A stretch of 5,083 bases of DNA from a virus (Duplodnaviria > Heunggongvirae > Uroviricota > Caudoviricetes): IMG/VR virus record IMGVR_UViG_3300010266_000075, positions 1 through 5,083 of that record; one strand, written 5' to 3'. Position numbers and translations under genes: made by a program. This document shows, in pieces, positions 1-5,083 of this stretch. How positions within the stretch are numbered: position 1 is the first letter of the stretch; each line of letters begins with the position of its first letter. A model generated the notes under the pieces. The model worked only from the letters and a program-made list of their open reading frames with translations, ran no database searches and was not told where the DNA came from.

Positions 1-1
1 A

Positions 2-334
2 GAATCAACGGAAACGGCGGCAAGACAACATATCGGGCCACTGGCCCCGGTGGCAGGCTCTGATTTGTATGTGTTCAGGCCGGTGGCACATACGGTGGAT
101 TTTCATATCCGCGTGACGCCGGACACACCGGAAATACGGGCTGCCATCACCGCGGAGTTGCGTTCGTTCCTGCTGCGTGATGGTTATCCGCAGGGAGAAC
201 TGAAGGTGTCGCGTATCAGTGAAGCGATTTCCGGTGCGAACGGGGAATACAGCCATCAGTTGCTTGCACCGGCGGACAATATCTCCATTGCAAAAAATGA
301 ACTGGCGGTTCTGGGGACGATTTCATGGACGTGA
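2..334 (+). CDS. Baseplate J-like protein, C-terminal fragment (5' end lies outside the window); Mu gp47 / P2 gpJ / e14 YmfP-like
   Basis: The frame is open from position 2 with no stop until TGA at 332-334 (the ORF track starts it at an internal GTG at 50). Its stop overlaps the next gene's ATG (ATGGACGTGA), typical of phage late-operon coupling. Position immediately upstream of a gp48/YmfQ-like gene and the tail fibre matches the baseplate J to gp48 to fibre order. Family assignment is by synteny and memory, not by search. Confidence 0.55.
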
Positions 335-909
335 CAAACGATGATTACATCCGCCTGTTATCGGCACTGTTGCCGCCCGGTCCGGCGTGGTCAGCCAGCG
401 ATCCGGCGATTGCCGGTGCGGCACCGTCATTAACCCGTGTTCATCAGCGTGCGGATGCCCTGATGCGGGAGCTGGATCCGCGCACCACCACCGAACTGAT
501 AAACCGCTGGGAGCGTCTGTGCGGTCTGCCGGATGAATGTATTCCGGCGGGAACGCAGACCCTTCGCCAGCGTCAGCAACGGCTGGATGCGAAGGTTAAC
601 CTGGCGGGCGGCATCAACGAGGATTTTTATCTTGCACAGCTTGCTGCCCTGGGCAGACCAGATGCCACCATCACGCGATACGACAAAAGCACGTTCACCT
701 GCTCATCGGCCTGTACTGACGCGGTGAATGCGCCGGAATGGCGGTATTACTGGCAGGTCAACATGCCAGCCGCCACCAACACCACCTGGATGACATGTGG
801 CGATCCCTGTGATTCCGCACTGCGTATCTGGGGCGACACCGTTGTCGAGTGCGTGCTTAACAAACTCTGCCCTTCGCATACCTACGTAATTTTTAAATAT
901 CCGGAGTAA
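325..909 (+). CDS. ymfQ: Phage tail/baseplate protein, Mu gp48 / P2 gpI-like (DUF2313), YmfQ-like
   Basis: 194-aa ORF starting [22 protein letters not shown], with a GGGGA Shine-Dalgarno about 8 nt upstream and a 4-bp overlap with the upstream stop. Length (194 aa) and position between the J-like gene and the side tail fibre match YmfQ of the e14 prophage. The symbol rests on synteny and recollection, not alignment. Confidence 0.7.
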
Positions 910-912
910 TCC

Positions 913-1701
913 ATGCATCGTATAGACACGAAAACCGCGCAGAAGGATAAGTTCGGCGCGGGTAAGAACGGTTTTACCCGTGGTAACCCCCAGACCGGCA
1001 CACCTGCCACCGATCTGGATGATGACTACTTTGACATGTTGCAGGAAGAACTTTGTAGCGTGGTGGAGGCCTCCGGTGCCAGCCTGGAGAAAGGGCGGCA
1101 TGACCAGATGCTTACCGCACTTCGTGCGCTGCTGTTAAGCCGCAAGAATCCGTTTGGCGATATCAAATCGGATGGCACTGTGCAAACGGCTCTCGAAAAC
1201 CTTGGTTTGGGAGAAGGCTCTGCATTACCTGTTGGTGTCCCTGTTCCGTGGCCTTCAGCCACTCCGCCAACAGGCTGGCTGAAATGCAATGGTGCGGCTT
1301 TTTCTGCCGAAGAGTACCCAAAACTGGCAAAGGCTTACCCAAAGTTAAAATTACCGGATTTGCGCGGTGAGTTTATTCGCGGGTGGGATGATGGGCGAGG
1401 TGTTGATTCCGCGAGACTGCTACTTTCAAGTCAGGCGGCATCTATCCTTGAACATAACCATGAAATGCATGGATGGACAGGGAACCCACTCATGGCTAGA
1501 GATGTTGGTGAATTAGGTACATCATCCGTATTTGCGGTGCAGTTGAGCATTGGCGATGGCGGGTTATTGTATTCGTGGAAGGATGGGAGTGGAACAACAA
1601 ATGACAGTAAACGAATGGATAGAACAAATCATGTCAGTTCCGGCGCCGGTGATGGTAGCCCGCGAAACATTGCATTTAACTACATTGTGAGGGCTGCATA
1701 A
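913..1701 (+). CDS. stfE: Side tail-fibre protein: constant N-terminal part (about aa 1-100) fused in this orientation to a variable C-terminal part carrying a tail-collar domain
   Basis: ATG at 913 with GGAG 5 nt upstream. A tail-collar motif is visible: [25 protein letters not shown]...[19 protein letters not shown] (GWLxCNG...LPDLRGxFxRG pattern). A hix-like crossover site sits inside the gene at 1190-1215, splitting it into constant and variable parts. The symbol is tentative and refers to the e14 variable part currently fused in frame. Confidence 0.8.
1190..1215. repeat. Left crossover site of the invertible segment (pix/gix/hix-like 26-bp site inside the tail-fibre gene)
   Basis: CTCTCGAAAACC-TT-GGTTTGGGAGAA has the hix/gix architecture (12-bp imperfect half-sites around a 2-bp core; compare hixL TTCTTGAAAACC-AA-GGTTTTTGATAA, recalled from memory). 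It is an inverted copy of the site at 3100-3125, with 15 bp of exact identity (TTGGTTTGGGAGAAG at 1202-1216 equals the reverse complement of 3099-3113). Confidence 0.65.
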
Positions 1702-2304
1702 ATGGAACAGGCTATTTTGGGAAAAGACGGTTACGCTTTAAATGATGGGGAAATCATCGTACATAACTATGATGGCGAAACGCGGGAATATATTTCTACA
1801 TCAACTGAATATCTCGCTGTCGGCGTCGGTATCCCGGCATGTTCCTGTCTGGATGCACCAGGTACACATAAAGCTGGTTATGCAATCTGTCGCTCTGTAG
1901 ATTTAAATTCATGGGAATATGTGCCAGACCATCGCGGTGAAACGGTCTATAGCACCAAAACAGGAGAATCAAAAGAAATCACCGCTCCGGGTGATTATCC
2001 TGAAAATACAACCACTATCGCCCCATTAACGCCATACGATAAATGGGATGGTGAGAAATGGGTGACCGATACTGAGGCACAGCATAGCGCCGCAGTAGAC
2101 GCGGCAGAAGCACAGCGCCAGTCACTGATTGATGCTGCAATGGCTTCCATTAGTCTGATTCAACTGAAATTGCAGGCCGGACGTAAACTGACGCAGGCAG
2201 AAACAACCAGACTTAACGCTGTGCTGGATTACATTGACGCGGTGACGGCAACAGATACCAGCACCGCGCCGGATGTCATCTGGCCTGAACTGCCGGAGGC
2301 GTAG
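1702..2304 (+). CDS. tfaE: Tail-fibre assembly protein (chaperone) cognate to the expressed fibre C-terminus
   Basis: ATG at 1702 immediately follows the fibre stop (TAA-ATG). The 200-aa product ends with the conserved Tfa C-terminal signature ...LNAVLDYIDAVTATDTSTAPDVIWPELP. Length matches TfaE of e14. The symbol is tentative. Confidence 0.78.
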   Translation: MEQAILGKDGYALNDGEIIVHNYDGETREYISTSTEYLAVGVGIPACSCLDAPGTHKAGYAICRSVDLNSWEYVPDHRGETVYSTKTGESKEITAPGDYPENTTTIAPLTPYDKWDGEKWVTDTEAQHSAAVDAAEAQRQSLIDAAMASISLIQLKLQAGRKLTQAETTRLNAVLDYIDAVTATDTSTAPDVIWPELPEA

Positions 2305-2719
2305 GCCATTCAATATCTGGCGCACTGGAGGTATCAACCAGCTCCAGTGCGTCCAGATAATCCAGCCACAAATTATATTGCGCCAGTTCCTCACCTTTCA
2401 GACGACCAATAGCGGCTTTACCGGGCCATTGCTTACTGTTCATGTATTCGTTGGCCTGGTTAATTAGTAGCTGTCTTTCTGATTCAGTAATTTCAATAAG
2501 CTCTTCATGCGTGGGTGGAGGAATATCTGCCCACGCAGGCAGCCCATCATCTCCGGCAATACGGATTTTTCCTTGTGGCGGTTCAGCCATAAACTCACTG
2601 ATAATATTTTGATTTACTTCCTTAGCGTCTGATAAATCCCATCCCTCTGATTTATATTTATCAATCATATCCACAGGGAAAAAAGCATTATGCCTTGCGC
2701 TATAAACATATTCGTTCAT
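2276..2719 (-). CDS. tfaP: Alternative tail-fibre assembly protein, in the silent orientation of the invertible segment
   Basis: Minus-strand ORF ending ...LWLDYLDALELVDTSSAPDIEWPTPP, the same Tfa C-terminal signature as the plus-strand gene. I place the start at ATG 2719 (AGGGTGA RBS 6 nt upstream); the ORF track starts at GTG 2728. Its 3' end overlaps the plus-strand tfa by 29 bp. The symbol is tentative. Confidence 0.68.
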   Translation of the reverse strand: MNEYVYSARHNAFFPVDMIDKYKSEGWDLSDAKEVNQNIISEFMAEPPQGKIRIAGDDGLPAWADIPPPTHEELIEITESERQLLINQANEYMNSKQWPGKAAIGRLKGEELAQYNLWLDYLDALELVDTSSAPDIEWPTPPAVQAR

Positions 2720-2739
2720 ATAAATCACCCTGAATAAAA

Positions 2740-3112
2740 TTACTCACCAACAGCCCACCAACTGTAATTCATCGATACCGTGTCGCTGGTTGATGACGTT
2801 CTGTAAGCAGAATTAAAGCCGGTTAACGTTGGGCCTTCTGCAGTCATCACGAACCCTCGCCCAGCGCCTAAAGGCGCACCGCCATCACCAGAATGAGTAA
2901 GCATGGCGCAGTCCGCTTTTTTGGGGAAAGGGATGCTGAATGTAATTCTCATTGTTTGCGTCGATAATGTCGGCGTAACCGCACCACGACCATATTGCAG
3001 GATTTTCCCGTTGGGTAATTTCATCCATCCATCACCACTGGCAAAAGAGGCCATGTCCGGTATCTGATTTTCCCCTGTCCCCACATCCCGTTTTGCCGCT
3101 TCTCCCAAACCA
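2740..3112 (-). CDS. stfP: Alternative variable C-terminal tail-fibre segment, start-less in this orientation; would fuse to the constant part at 913 after inversion
   Basis: Minus-strand frame open from the right crossover site to a stop at 2740-2742. Next to the crossover it encodes N-V-G-L-G-E, mirroring N-L-G-L-G-E in the plus-strand fibre, and then diverges. The track's apparent start at 3153 lies outside the invertible segment and is an artefact. The symbol is tentative. Confidence 0.6.
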
Positions 3113-3125
3113 ACGTTTATGAAAA
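3100..3125. repeat. Right crossover site of the invertible segment (pix/gix/hix-like), immediately upstream of the invertase gene
   Basis: TTCTCCCAAACC-AA-CGTTTATGAAAA is the inverted partner of the site at 1190-1215. It lies 55 bp upstream of the invertase start, the usual placement of gixR/hixR-type sites. Confidence 0.65.
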
Positions 3126-3179
3126 TGCAGAAATAACGAGCAAATGGCATCATTCCTGCTTTTGTCAGGGGGATCTACC

Positions 3180-3734
3180 ATGCTTATTGGCTATGTACGC
3201 GTATCAACAAATGACCAGAACACAGATCTACAACGTAATGCGCTGAACTGTGCAGGATGCGAGCTGATTTTTGAAGACAAGATAAGCGGCACAAAGTCCG
3301 AAAGGCCGGGACTGAAAAAACTGCTCAGGACATTATCGGCAGGTGACACTCTGGTTGTCTGGAAGCTGGATCGGCTGGGGCGTAGTATGCGGCATCTTGT
3401 CGTGCTGGTGGAGGAGTTGCGCGAACGAGGCATCAACTTTCGTAGTCTGACGGATTCAATTGATACCAGCACACCAATGGGACGCTTTTTCTTTCATGTG
3501 ATGGGTGCCCTGGCTGAAATGGAGCGTGAACTGATTGTTGAACGAACAAAAGCTGGACTGGAAGCTGCTCGCGCACAGGGACGAATTGGTGGACGTCGCC
3601 CCAAACTTACACCAGAACAATGGGAGCAGGCCGGACGATTAATTGCAGCAGGAATTCCTCGCCAGAAGGTAGCGATCATCTATGATATTGGTGTATCGAC
3701 TTTGTATAAGAGGTTTCCAGCCAGGATTATATAA
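3180..3734 (+). CDS. pinE: Site-specific DNA invertase, small serine recombinase of the Pin/Gin/Hin/Cin family
   Basis: Starts MLIGYVRVSTNDQ with the catalytic Ser at position 9 in the YVRVSTxxQ motif. Also contains DTLVVWKLDRLGRS, the GRFFFHVMGALAEMERELIVERT core and a C-terminal helix-turn-helix (IPRQKVAIIYDIGVSTLYKRF). GGGGGA RBS about 7 nt upstream of ATG 3180; the upstream ATG at 3144 has no RBS and would add a non-conserved leader. Length 184 aa. Confidence 0.92.
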   Translation: MLIGYVRVSTNDQNTDLQRNALNCAGCELIFEDKISGTKSERPGLKKLLRTLSAGDTLVVWKLDRLGRSMRHLVVLVEELRERGINFRSLTDSIDTSTPMGRFFFHVMGALAEMERELIVERTKAGLEAARAQGRIGGRRPKLTPEQWEQAGRLIAAGIPRQKVAIIYDIGVSTLYKRFPARII

Positions 3735-3735
3735 A

Positions 3736-3770
3736 ACCGCAGACACGCCGTATGCAAGACGTGCTGCGGT
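3736..3770 (+). terminator. Candidate hairpin just after the invertase stop; weak, with no clear U-tract
   Basis: ACCGCAGACACG, a 12-nt loop, then CGTGCTGCGGT form an imperfect stem of about 11 bp starting 2 nt after the TAA at 3732-3734. It is not followed by a T-run, so intrinsic termination is uncertain. Confidence 0.25.
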
Positions 3771-3930
3771 TGGCTGATGCACTTTCGAGAGTGTATGTAT
3801 TGAATTATTTCCAGCCGTTACTGATTTTACGTATTTTTTGTATGAGAGGAGTTGCACCACCTCTTAAGCATAATTTGTTAGAATCATGGCAGCACAATAG
3901 CCATATATCCAATATAAAATACTTAACCTT

Positions 3931-4830
3931 CTAATCATTATGGAGTATTTGATCGCCGTATGGCCAGCCATTTTCCCCAGGAAGGGTCATACCTAACATT
4001 GGCATAATACTAAGTTGTCCAATGGTAAATCCTAGAGCACTTGTATTACTGATTCCGGCATAGGTCATATCAAGGGGGTTAGACTCTGAGCTGGACATAA
4101 AAAGATTTCTTGTGCCAATTCTATTCGCCATTGAGAACTGAATATGCCCACCAATTGTATTTACGGTGTCCTGAGATATCCAGTTGTTTAACGCGATAAA
4201 TGGCGCCCGCCACCAGTTAAGCGTGCCATTCTCAAAACGCCCCCTCGTCATCTCAATATCTTCCCGAAACTGCTGCTTTCTGTCTCCCAAGACTACCGGG
4301 GTACCTGTTGTCAGGTCAAGGCAGTCCTCAATTACAAGATTAGTGGGGTTTGATGGGGTGTTGTAGATCTTAATGATTTTATGTACCTGTGTTCTGAAAC
4401 AGAATCCGTAAATAATCATCTCCGTTGCTACAGAACGGGGAAAAAACTGGCCAATATCCAGTATAAATTTTTCCGCGATTCCCTTTGTTAAAACTGCAAT
4501 TTCATAAAGACTCGGGTAACTATCATAAGTCAACTCCGGCTGCTGAACATCATAATAATTAACTTCATGTAATGAAGATAATGATACGGCAAGTAACTCC
4601 TTCACATTTATACCGATCATTGTTCCTCCTGCAAAGCCGAAACCAAACTCCATAATTTTTTCCGGAGATAGACGGTATATGTCATTGGAGCGAATAACTG
4701 ATACCGGAATCGAGAATAGTTTAGGACAGTGATTTGTCATTACACTTTCATGCTGGGTGATTCTTGAGTCGCTTACGGCCCAGATACTTTCCCCTTCTTC
4801 CCTGTTTAGCCAGCAGGCTATTGCTGTCAT
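3931..4830 (-). CDS. Hypothetical 299-aa protein, AT-rich cargo gene convergent with the invertase; possible N-terminal-nucleophile (HslV/proteasome-beta-like) hydrolase; candidate defence or exclusion gene
   Basis: Long minus-strand ORF. I place the start at ATG 4830 (MTAIACWLN...) because a strong Shine-Dalgarno (AAAGGGGG, plus-strand 4838-4845) lies about 7 nt upstream; the track's upstream extension to 4968 has no RBS. Composition is visibly AT-rich compared with the tail genes. The N-terminus has Thr2, Asp21, Lys37 and an FAGGT motif at 66-70, reminiscent of HslV (MTTIV...GFAGGTADAF, recalled from memory). It is not McrA-like and no HNH or Walker motif was seen. Confidence 0.65.
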   Translation of the reverse strand: MTAIACWLNREEGESIWAVSDSRITQHESVMTNHCPKLFSIPVSVIRSNDIYRLSPEKIMEFGFGFAGGTMIGINVKELLAVSLSSLHEVNYYDVQQPELTYDSYPSLYEIAVLTKGIAEKFILDIGQFFPRSVATEMIIYGFCFRTQVHKIIKIYNTPSNPTNLVIEDCLDLTTGTPVVLGDRKQQFREDIEMTRGRFENGTLNWWRAPFIALNNWISQDTVNTIGGHIQFSMANRIGTRNLFMSSSESNPLDMTYAGISNTSALGFTIGQLSIMPMLGMTLPGENGWPYGDQILHND

Positions 4831-4859
4831 TGAAAACCCCCTTTTAAGTAAAAAAATCA

Positions 4860-4895
4860 GATTCAGATAGTGCATACATAATTTAGTCAAGTCAT
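4860..4895 (-). promoter_or_regulatory. Candidate sigma70-type promoter for the cargo gene (weak)
   Basis: On the minus strand, TTGACT (complement of 4885-4890) is followed about 15 nt downstream by TATCTG (complement of 4864-4869), in AT-rich context 30-60 nt upstream of the RBS. The -10 element and the spacing are suboptimal, so this is speculative. Confidence 0.2.
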
Positions 4896-5083
4896 CTCTT
4901 TTAAGACGCATTGAGAAATGGTTGCTCAAGGTGCGCCAGTGAACGCGCACGAAAATAACTTCTTGCATTTCCCATTACACTCTGACTTTAGGGCCGCGTT
5001 AGATTTTAACATGGTGGCCGTGCATCCATTTAAATTGGTAATCTGGAGAATGAGTAACGCTGAATAGATTAACAATCTATGCG

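Follow-up and report, generated by a model that had tools for sequence, protein, structure and literature searches.

A predicted proteasome-beta-like Ntn hydrolase encoded as cargo beside the pin invertase of a tailed-phage prophage

The tailed-phage DNA considered here (Caudoviricetes; IMG/VR record IMGVR_UViG_3300010266_000075, positions 1 to 5,083; this whole stretch of 5,083 nucleotides is called the window below) forms one end of a prophage whose tail module is Mu-like. It carries on its minus strand, at 3931..4830, a coding sequence (CDS) of 299 aa plus a stop codon whose product is best described as a proteasome-beta-like N-terminal nucleophile (Ntn) hydrolase, on the grounds of the list of open reading frames (ORFs), the translation, a RefSeq CDS, and model and fold matches. 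The product begins MTAIACWLNREEGESIWAVSDSRITQHESVMTNHCPKLFSIPVSVIRSNDIYRLSPEKIMEFGFGFAGGT (translation of window 3931–4830, minus strand) and is entered in RefSeq as WP_024248228.1, a ‘hypothetical protein’ with the same coordinates in Escherichia coli NADC1036. An earlier note, made from the letters of the window alone, had proposed that its N-terminus has the residue spacing of an Ntn hydrolase of the HslV or proteasome-beta kind, and the landmarks on which it leaned (Thr2, Asp21, Lys37, and an FAGGT motif) do lie where it placed them: window 4621–4830 encodes residues 1–70, with the codons of F66-A67-G68-G69-T70 at 4621–4635.

The largest minus-strand ORF in the right-hand part of the window runs from 4968 to 3931 and would encode 345 aa, and the ATG at 4828–4830 that opens the 299-aa product is internal to it. 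Read from the sequence, a Shine–Dalgarno-like AAGGGGG (4837..4843, minus strand) lies 6 nt upstream of this internal ATG, which forms with the following codon the pair ATG-ACA (Met-Thr). A homologue search gave 27 clusters, mainly from Enterobacterales together with Photobacterium and some metagenomes, and Met-Thr is aligned in 27/27 of these close homologues; all but one, which has an extra N-terminal extension, begin there. Among a divergent set of 123 family representatives (mean column identity 21 per cent), 116 proteins start MT, 4 MS, and 2 ‘VT’ (a GTG start). A Thr or Ser next to the initiator Met therefore characterises the family as a whole and is not an accident of a single sequence. 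The start that the earlier note had called supported by a ribosome-binding site (RBS) is in this way borne out, and since the RBS precedes Met-Thr and family conservation begins at Met-Thr, the alignments support 299 aa, not 345, as the probable correct product. Start annotation differs among databases over window 4831–4968, where WP_233337191.1 and the cluster representative P0001 use the ATG at 4968 (345 aa).

An AlphaFold2 model built from the 27-sequence alignment reached a predicted local distance difference test (pLDDT) score of 86.8 and a predicted template modelling (pTM) score of 0.88, with four of the five models at a pLDDT of at least 84.6. The modelled fold is the proteasome-type alpha-beta-beta-alpha sandwich with helices H1–H4 that marks the superfamily. 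Foldseek comparison against the PDB gave 249 matches at E ≤ 1e-3, and the best 50 of these 249 are all proteasome-family chains (49 20S beta subunits and 1 Anbu); the 20S beta subunits matched are archaeal, actinobacterial, and eukaryotic. Because the Foldseek matches are proteasome-family chains, the window protein is assigned to the proteasome branch of the Ntn superfamily. Fold comparison scores were 15.7 for HslV and at most 10.8 for other Ntn hydrolases, with the 20S beta subunits as the best match, and as modelled the window protein is nearer to 20S beta subunits than to HslV. What survives of the earlier assignment is the beta-like Ntn fold (AlphaFold2 and Foldseek) and the resemblance to HslV at one motif, the FAGG of the window protein being aligned by hhalign to the FAGG of E. 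coli HslV; the protein does not belong to the HslV family itself.

The elements of the model (E3-9, E15-21, E38-46, E57-68, H70-84, H108-127, and, further along, E179-182, H185-196, H209-220, and E230-235) follow the order of those in a beta subunit (S1, S2, S3, S4, H1, H2, and, further along, S8, H3, H4, S9). To the proteasome core are added an insertion between S3 and S4, a low-confidence linker (residues 85–107) between H1 and H2, an insert between H3 and H4 that contains WWRxP, and a C-terminal extension of ∼50 residues. The extension (residues 247–299; 3934..4092, minus strand) lies beyond the proteasome core and has lower pLDDT, with conserved glycines at G259, G271, and G280. The S3–S4 hairpin insertion of ∼17–18 residues (residues 44–60; 4651..4701, minus strand) is seen as an 18-column gap in hhalign and from the model strands E38-46 and E57-68, and it is this 18-residue insertion that places FAGGT ∼20 residues later than in HslV, as the earlier note had surmised. 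The same note had expected a protein so much longer than HslV to carry an extra C-terminal domain; the greater length is real (299 aa), but it is made up of several insertions and the ∼50-residue extension, not of one clean domain.

Relatives of the protein are numerous. A profile of the 27 clusters searched against 1.84 billion cluster representatives at 50 per cent identity recovered 865 proteins at E ≤ 1e-3, 516 of them at E ≤ 1e-10; almost all have 265–295 aa and align from the first residue. The family is large, at least 865 clusters at 50 per cent identity, has no name in the databases scanned, and is spread over Gammaproteobacteria, Betaproteobacteria, Cyanobacteria, Sporomusaceae, and Bacteroidota. 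Invariant residues in the 27-sequence alignment include M1, T2, W7, W17, D21, S22, K37, F39, G63, and G68, and among the 123 divergent representatives D21, K37, and G182 are the sole invariant residues, while T2, W7, G63, G68, P106, G142, C144, P210, G227, and G228 are kept in at least 90 per cent. Several conserved residues are specific to the family and have no proteasome counterpart (W7, W17, C144 in 117/123, R208, P210, and Q231). Judged from these alignments, residue conservation across the 123 representatives is confirmed to be far beyond chance. A Pfam scan of the 123 relatives reached no family, with one PF00227 match at E 0.08; tblastn of the window protein against 50,697 deposited phage genomes gave no match, and a fold search of BFVD found only other, shorter phage proteasome homologues of ∼12 per cent identity.

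Active-site residues were mapped from the order of the secondary-structure elements, from conservation within the family, and from hhalign profile alignments with E. coli HslV, with the Thermoplasma beta subunit (in a sequence that matches 3c91_H and 1pma_B at 100 per cent identity), and with an archaeal beta profile of 19 sequences. This last profile is shallow, the search seeded with Thermoplasma beta having given sequences 58–98 per cent identical and one at 45 per cent. The local hhalign alignments are collinear and, despite weak E values, agree with the fold match; a forced global alignment was discarded because it misaligned the N-terminus. All codons that follow lie on the minus strand. 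The predicted N-terminal nucleophile, Thr2 (4825..4827; proteasome Thr1), stands at the start of strand E3-9 and is T in 120/123 and S in 3/123 representatives. Asp21 (4768..4770; proteasome Asp/Glu17), at the end of strand E15-21, is found in 123/123 and pairs in hhalign with E17 of Thermoplasma beta, and Lys37 (4720..4722; proteasome Lys33), just before strand E38-46, is likewise found in 123/123 and pairs with K33. The segment G63-F-G-F-A-G68-G-T70 (4621..4644) spans the end of S4 and the start of H1, and its G68 (122/123; G63 is kept in 112/123) corresponds to the oxyanion-hole Gly47. The archaeal beta profile pairs G63 with G42, A67-G68 with A46-G47, and G227-G228 with G170-G171. The equivalences to Asp17 and Lys33 drawn in the earlier note, and that of G68 to Gly47, hold on both conservation and collinear pairing.

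Two further loops can be placed with less precision. G182-D183 (4282..4287), in the loop from E179-182 to H185-196, occupies by topology the place of proteasome G128-S129; G182 is invariant, and position 183 among the 123 is D in 56, S in 30, N in 11, and T in 9. This equivalence rests on topology, hhalign having aligned the segment otherwise. The T225-I-G227-G228 loop (4147..4158) precedes strand E230-235; its two glycines, each kept in 121/123, are those that pair with proteasome G170-G171, I226 is always I or V, and T225 is T in 51, S in 26, and D in 15 of the 123. In hhalign V223 falls opposite Asp166 and I226 opposite Ser169, neither being a conserved polar residue, and T225 (T/S/D) is adjacent.

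It is well supported that the conserved positions of the family fall on the elements of a proteasome active site, namely the N-terminal Thr, the end of S2, the start of S3, the end of S4, and the S8–H3 and H4–S9 loops. Fuchs, Alva, and Lupas (2021; PMC8665760) recognised proteasome homologues by a predicted fold (an S1–S11 beta-sheet core with helices H1–H4) together with the Thr1/Asp17/Lys33 triad and Gly47, and the features of a proteasome-like Ntn protein in that sense are present here: the fold, a Thr that the gene start places directly behind the initiator Met, and equivalents of Asp17, Lys33, and Gly47. That the window protein is a proteasome-beta-like Thr Ntn hydrolase whose predicted catalytic triad is intact is likewise well supported. 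Only the fold and the positions of the motifs reveal its kinship to proteasomes, no significant sequence-profile match to PF00227 or to solved proteasome chains having been obtained with Pfam, HMMER, or hhalign.

The prophage runs through sheath, tube, tape-measure, baseplate, tail-fibre, and tail-fibre-assembly genes to pinE, the 299-aa gene, a 200-aa gene, intS, and tRNA-Arg. The pinE-type serine invertase gene (3180..3734, plus strand; RefSeq annotation L001 11481-12035) is convergent with the 299-aa gene and marks where the phage tail-fibre module gives way to AT-rich cargo. GC content is 0.51 in window 1–3734 and 0.41 in 3735–5083 (∼0.42 in the 299-aa gene), and because it falls right after the pin stop codon the cargo is taken to be a separate acquisition. 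The 299-aa gene occurs in 7/5426 complete E. coli genomes, and in five of the seven identity begins at window 3737, just past the pin stop; the same two-gene piece (299-aa and 200-aa genes) is present in the two of these five that were inspected. The gene is seen in three E. coli settings: in the Mu-like-tail prophage at tRNA-Arg/intS, at one end of a lambdoid prophage close to torT, and on a plasmid, beside lambdoid tail genes. Scans for promoters and terminators around the 299-aa gene gave results no better than shuffled sequence.

The 200-aa protein (WP_021577015.1) is encoded upstream of the Ntn gene, on the minus strand at L001 13613-14215, ∼480 bp past the right end of the window, and also in loci L008 and L009 (9576-10178). 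It has one N-terminal transmembrane helix and a helical (coiled-coil) region, and its only family match is marginal and ZorB-like. The idea that it is an obligate partner was rejected, since among 24 loci searched it is found only in three E. coli loci, for which reason it is regarded as co-cargo. On the other side of the gene, inverted crossover sites of the Pin/Gin type lie at window 1192–1217 and 3098–3123 (core AAACCTTGGTTTGGGAGAAG versus AAACGTTGGTTTGGGAGAAG) and flank a ∼1.9-kb segment with alternative tail-fibre C-termini and assembly genes on opposite strands (ORFs at 1702–2304, plus; 2276–2728, minus; 2740–3153, minus). Together they make up a classical invertible switch of host range, which the pin gene at 3180–3734 drives.

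The surroundings of the relatives were examined for 67 non-redundant family proteins from genome, viral, and metagenome scans; the locus scans were based on alignment A1, which biases them towards proteobacterial clades. Among relatives 45–60 per cent identical to the window protein, one in Serratia lies in a lambdoid prophage between recombination genes and a CI-like repressor, one in Providencia lies in a P2-like prophage between ogr-type genes, and another is flanked by an ORF for a TraC-type conjugation gene. Genes with a RelA_SpoT domain occur near the Ntn gene in Serratia (L002/L003 6330-7421, adjoining) and in Providencia (L004/L005 16040-16891). In another P2-like prophage a member 39 per cent identical directly follows the integrase, and a DUF2971 gene is close by. 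Relatives in Photobacterium sit in islands with Mrr, HNH, and SAVED/SMODS genes, or with CD-NTase, Cap15, and DUF5677. Further distant members have HEPN_AbiU2, TacAT, and HipBA as neighbours, and elsewhere integrases, RES, EcoRII-C, KAP NTPase, DUF4238, capP, restriction-modification genes, and several PDC (PADLOC candidate) systems are found. None of the loci showed an AAA+ unfoldase partner.

Over the 67 non-redundant proteins the sole recurrent neighbours are a Pin-like serine recombinase and the patatin effectors and cyclases of cyclic-oligonucleotide-based antiphage signalling systems (CBASS). The Pin-like small serine recombinase is a neighbour in three non-redundant loci (L056 7026-7631; L066 249-800; and L001 11445-12035, the pinE of the window). 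Small serine recombinases have been published as markers of adjacent defence genes (Andersen et al., PMC13552941), and the Pin-adjacent position here and in the two other loci fits the idea of a recombinase as defence marker.

The association with CBASS is more extensive and concerns a sister clade. Cyclases were found with a cyclase hidden Markov model and confirmed with PADLOC and Pfam; a CBASS cyclase lies no more than 3.5 kb away in nine non-redundant loci, and in four of these the two genes share a strand and are at most 60 nt apart. All nine belong to a clade 31–42 per cent identical to the window protein, in which they make up 9/∼15 of the loci with usable flanks. Patatin, cyclase, and Ntn genes follow one another in that order with a gap of ∼22 nt in L048 (3546-6873), L050 (1304-4634), and L051 (44-2357), and a 4TM effector, cyclase, and Ntn do so with a 60-nt gap in L014 (4376-7867). 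A cyclase precedes the Ntn gene by 322 nt in L015 (5396-7870) and follows it after 31 nt in L040 (350-2146). Also found are a 2TM effector and cyclase followed at a distance by Ntn and recombinase genes (L055/L056 3191-6876), a divergent patatin–cyclase pair ∼3.5 kb upstream of an Ntn gene that is itself directly preceded by a capP-type peptidase gene (L042 1360-6882), a convergent CD-NTase/Cap15 operon (L018 7001-10322), and a CBASS-linked Ntn gene in Herminiimonas (L017 2946-7882). At the last of these, ORFs of 104 aa and 317 aa lie between cyclase and Ntn (L017 5539-6987), the second ending 14 nt before the Ntn start, and neither has a Pfam or PADLOC match.

The cyclases match at least six PADLOC models (PDLC00824, 00793, 00796, 00801, 00769, and 00768), the effectors at the linked loci are patatin, 4TM, 2TM, and Cap15, and the systems are CBASS type I. 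The cyclase-linked Ntn proteins are 33–70 per cent identical to one another, and for that reason the association would be either old or repeatedly arisen. CBASS-rich islands with two or three different cyclases are found in Burkholderia, Herminiimonas, and a metagenome contig (L014 1695-6941, L017 1548-5383, and L048 4563-11328). This linkage of the sister clade is the most specific functional lead, and it does not extend to the window gene: in the source genome no CBASS cyclase or effector operon lies within 12 kb.

These observations may inform a scheme for the action of the window protein. Methionine aminopeptidase tolerates Thr in the second position, and on that account the mature protein should start with Thr. 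Removal of Met1 by this enzyme would expose the alpha-amine and O-gamma of the threonine without a propeptide, as in HslV, Anbu, and BPH, and the O-gamma would then attack an amide bond, most likely a peptide bond, with the Lys37/Asp21 pair as proton shuttle and the backbone of Gly68 as oxyanion hole; we infer peptide-bond hydrolysis as the reaction. The weakest step of the scheme is that the horizontally acquired gene would act in phage–host conflict, which is suggested by its context: an AT-rich slot by Pin at the end of a prophage, relatives in prophage accessory slots, and a sister clade in CBASS operons and defence islands. The most likely role would be that of a single-gene defence or superinfection-exclusion protease that cuts a phage or host protein. 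We hold with moderate confidence that the window protein is a cytoplasmic, stand-alone Thr Ntn hydrolase, horizontally acquired as cargo, and likely such a protease.

Several results weigh against this interpretation at one level or another. The window protein has no meaningful match among Pfam, NCBIfam, PHROGs, and PADLOC models (none in PADLOC at E ≤ 10) and accordingly belongs to no PADLOC defence model; HMMER searches of PDB chains with the single sequence and with profiles A1 and A2 retrieved no proteasome chain; and hhalign of the family profile against proteasome and HslV gave E values of ∼0.05–0.2, which are not significant. Of the fold checks that the earlier note had named, the predicted structure shows an Ntn fold and the profile–profile comparison remains below significance. 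No clear conservation is seen at the counterparts of Ser129, Asp166, and Ser169, the second-shell residues of catalytically active beta subunits; of the equivalents that the earlier note had listed for checking, those of Thr1, Asp17, Lys33, and Gly47 are the ones clearly kept. The spatial proximity of T2, D21, and K37 is presumed from equivalence of fold. On the side of function, some distant members lie among ordinary chromosomal or housekeeping genes, CBASS was found neither near the clade of the window protein itself (at least 45 per cent identity) nor near clades of less than 31 per cent identity, and full-text searches found no literature that links proteasome-like or Ntn proteins to phage defence or CBASS.

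It might instead be expected from the sister clade that the Ntn protein works with or on CBASS, as an accessory peptidase of cyclic-oligonucleotide signalling that processes or degrades cyclase, effector, or phage trigger, and that the prophage copies are detached versions which tune a resident CBASS or disarm CBASS during induction (counter-defence). The nine loci with a cyclase within 3.5 kb, the operon-like gaps (∼22 nt in L048, L050, and L051, 60 nt in L014, and 31 nt in L040), the diversity of six or more cyclase models and four effector types beside Ntn proteins of such low mutual identity, and the standing of CBASS parts as the only recurrent neighbours apart from the Pin-like recombinase all speak for a role of this kind. 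However, the association is missing around the window gene and on both sides of the linked clade, the operons already contain a complete cyclase and effector pair, and, because several loci hold two or three CBASS cyclases (L014, L017, and L048), independent clustering of defence genes could by itself explain the adjacency. Taken together, the accessory role and its prophage counterpart are unlikely. A broader proposal, in which the clade supplies a third, accessory CBASS gene (effector–cyclase–Ntn) and so defines a new immunity module, a variant regulated or executed by a Thr protease whose prophage copies act alone in defence or counter-defence, is speculative and on the whole doubtful, if a little less so.

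It is also conceivable, and somewhat less likely again, that the protein is not an endoprotease at all and acts as a connectase-like transpeptidase or ligase, or as an amidase on a lipid, peptidoglycan, or small-molecule amide. Connectase is a monomeric Thr1 ligase with an insertion between S3 and S4 (PMC8665760), the site of the main insertion in the window protein too; the conserved W7, W17, C144, R208, P210, and Q231 suggest a specialised substrate pocket, and the want of an AAA+ unfoldase partner in every locus points the same way.

A self-compartmentalising housekeeping ring protease, of the BPH or uncapped 20S-like sort, that benefits the lysogen through quality control or stress tolerance and has no anti-phage role is improbable. 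The closest folds are indeed those of ring-forming beta subunits, Anbu, HslV, and BPH, some distant members do lie among ordinary chromosomal genes, and ATPase-independent clearance has been deemed plausible for orphan homologues (Fuchs et al., PMC8665760). Against this stand the rarity and patchiness of an AT-rich gene, its repeated placement in prophage accessory slots and defence islands, and insertions and a C-terminal extension that may be incompatible with stacked rings (inferred from the discussion in PMC8665760). A coincidental resemblance, or a real start at the ATG at 4968 that would leave the Thr internal to a 345-aa protein and make it a non-Ntn protein unless self-processing, can appeal to the records that annotate 345 aa and to the lack of significant proteasome similarity in HMMER and hhalign, and chance resemblance together with a wrong start is effectively excluded.

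Bacterial Thr proteases of the proteasome fold are known mainly as housekeeping machines (HslV and the actinobacterial 20S) or as orphans without a function (Anbu and BPH). If the preferred reading of an active protease in phage–host conflict is true, it would give the orphan proteasome branch a function and a tractable E. coli model, and would add a new enzymatic class to the repertoire of defence and counter-defence. The annotation is mended regardless, from ‘hypothetical protein’ to ‘proteasome-like Ntn hydrolase’ of 299 aa. The earlier note had considered a self-contained proteasome-like peptidase unusual as prophage cargo, but there are precedents in the phage-spread homologues PPH (only ∼140 aa) and AAH (PMC8665760). 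Phage-borne proteasome homologues being already known, it is potentially the link of the window family to bacterial immunity that is novel, and no description of operon-like Ntn–CBASS arrangements was found in the literature searched.

Set beside the 20S beta subunits (MEROPS T1; archaeal PsmB and actinobacterial PrcB), the window protein lacks a propeptide (its Thr comes right after the initiator Met), an alpha-subunit partner, and a PF00227 match, and it differs by the 18-residue S3/S4 insertion, the longer H1–H2 linker, the WWRxP insert between H3 and H4, and the ∼50-residue C-terminal extension. Its gene is solitary and found in mobile elements, and Ser129, Asp166, and Ser169 are not clearly kept. 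HslV (ClpQ) is compact, at ∼175 aa, and its partner ATPase HslU is encoded alongside, whereas the window protein has 299 aa, no AAA+ neighbour, and no NCBIfam, Pfam, or PDB sequence match to HslV; membership in the HslV family was rejected, as neither the family models nor the ∼175-aa size nor an adjacent hslU applied. To Anbu and BPH, which are without a known ATPase partner, no relation was detected at the sequence level and no operon partners of the Anbu type were seen, and the habitat of the window family, in prophages and defence islands, is different.

The nearest published parallels are the 22 families of uncharacterised proteasome homologues described by Fuchs, Alva, and Lupas (Bioinformatics 2021; PMC8665760), which have C-terminal extensions as well as insertions at S3/S4, H1/H2, and H3/H4; for none of these families is there an AAA+ partner or an established function. 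The window family has in common with them the triad and Gly47, the fold, the insertions and C-terminal extensions, and the lack of an AAA+ partner. The same authors report no genomic context that suggests a function (PMC8665760), and the Pin-adjacent prophage slot and the CBASS linkage of the window family are absent from their description. Among their families, GPH comes from Gammaproteobacteria and seems to have a further domain at its C-terminus (it is called ‘DGH’ in the text), and PMI-4 is large, diverse, and taxonomically broad (PMC8665760); the taxonomic spread of the window family fits neither unambiguously. In a comparison of accessions only, the representatives of Fuchs et al. (for example GPH WP_152342571.1) were absent from the 20 family clusters looked up, and the window family could be one of the 22 or a separate one.

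Connectase, the archaeal protein ligase of the proteasome fold, is a monomer with Thr1 and an S3/S4 insertion over the active site (PMC8665760), and it has in common with the window protein a Thr1 proteasome fold, a presumably stand-alone action, and an insertion at the S3/S4 site. Lit and the CBASS-associated CapP have unrelated zinc-metallopeptidase folds. Each is encoded, like the putative peptidase of the window, by a lone gene that travels as cargo of a prophage or defence island, Lit in the e14 prophage, and they offer a functional analogy only; in e14, mcrA also adjoins pinE.

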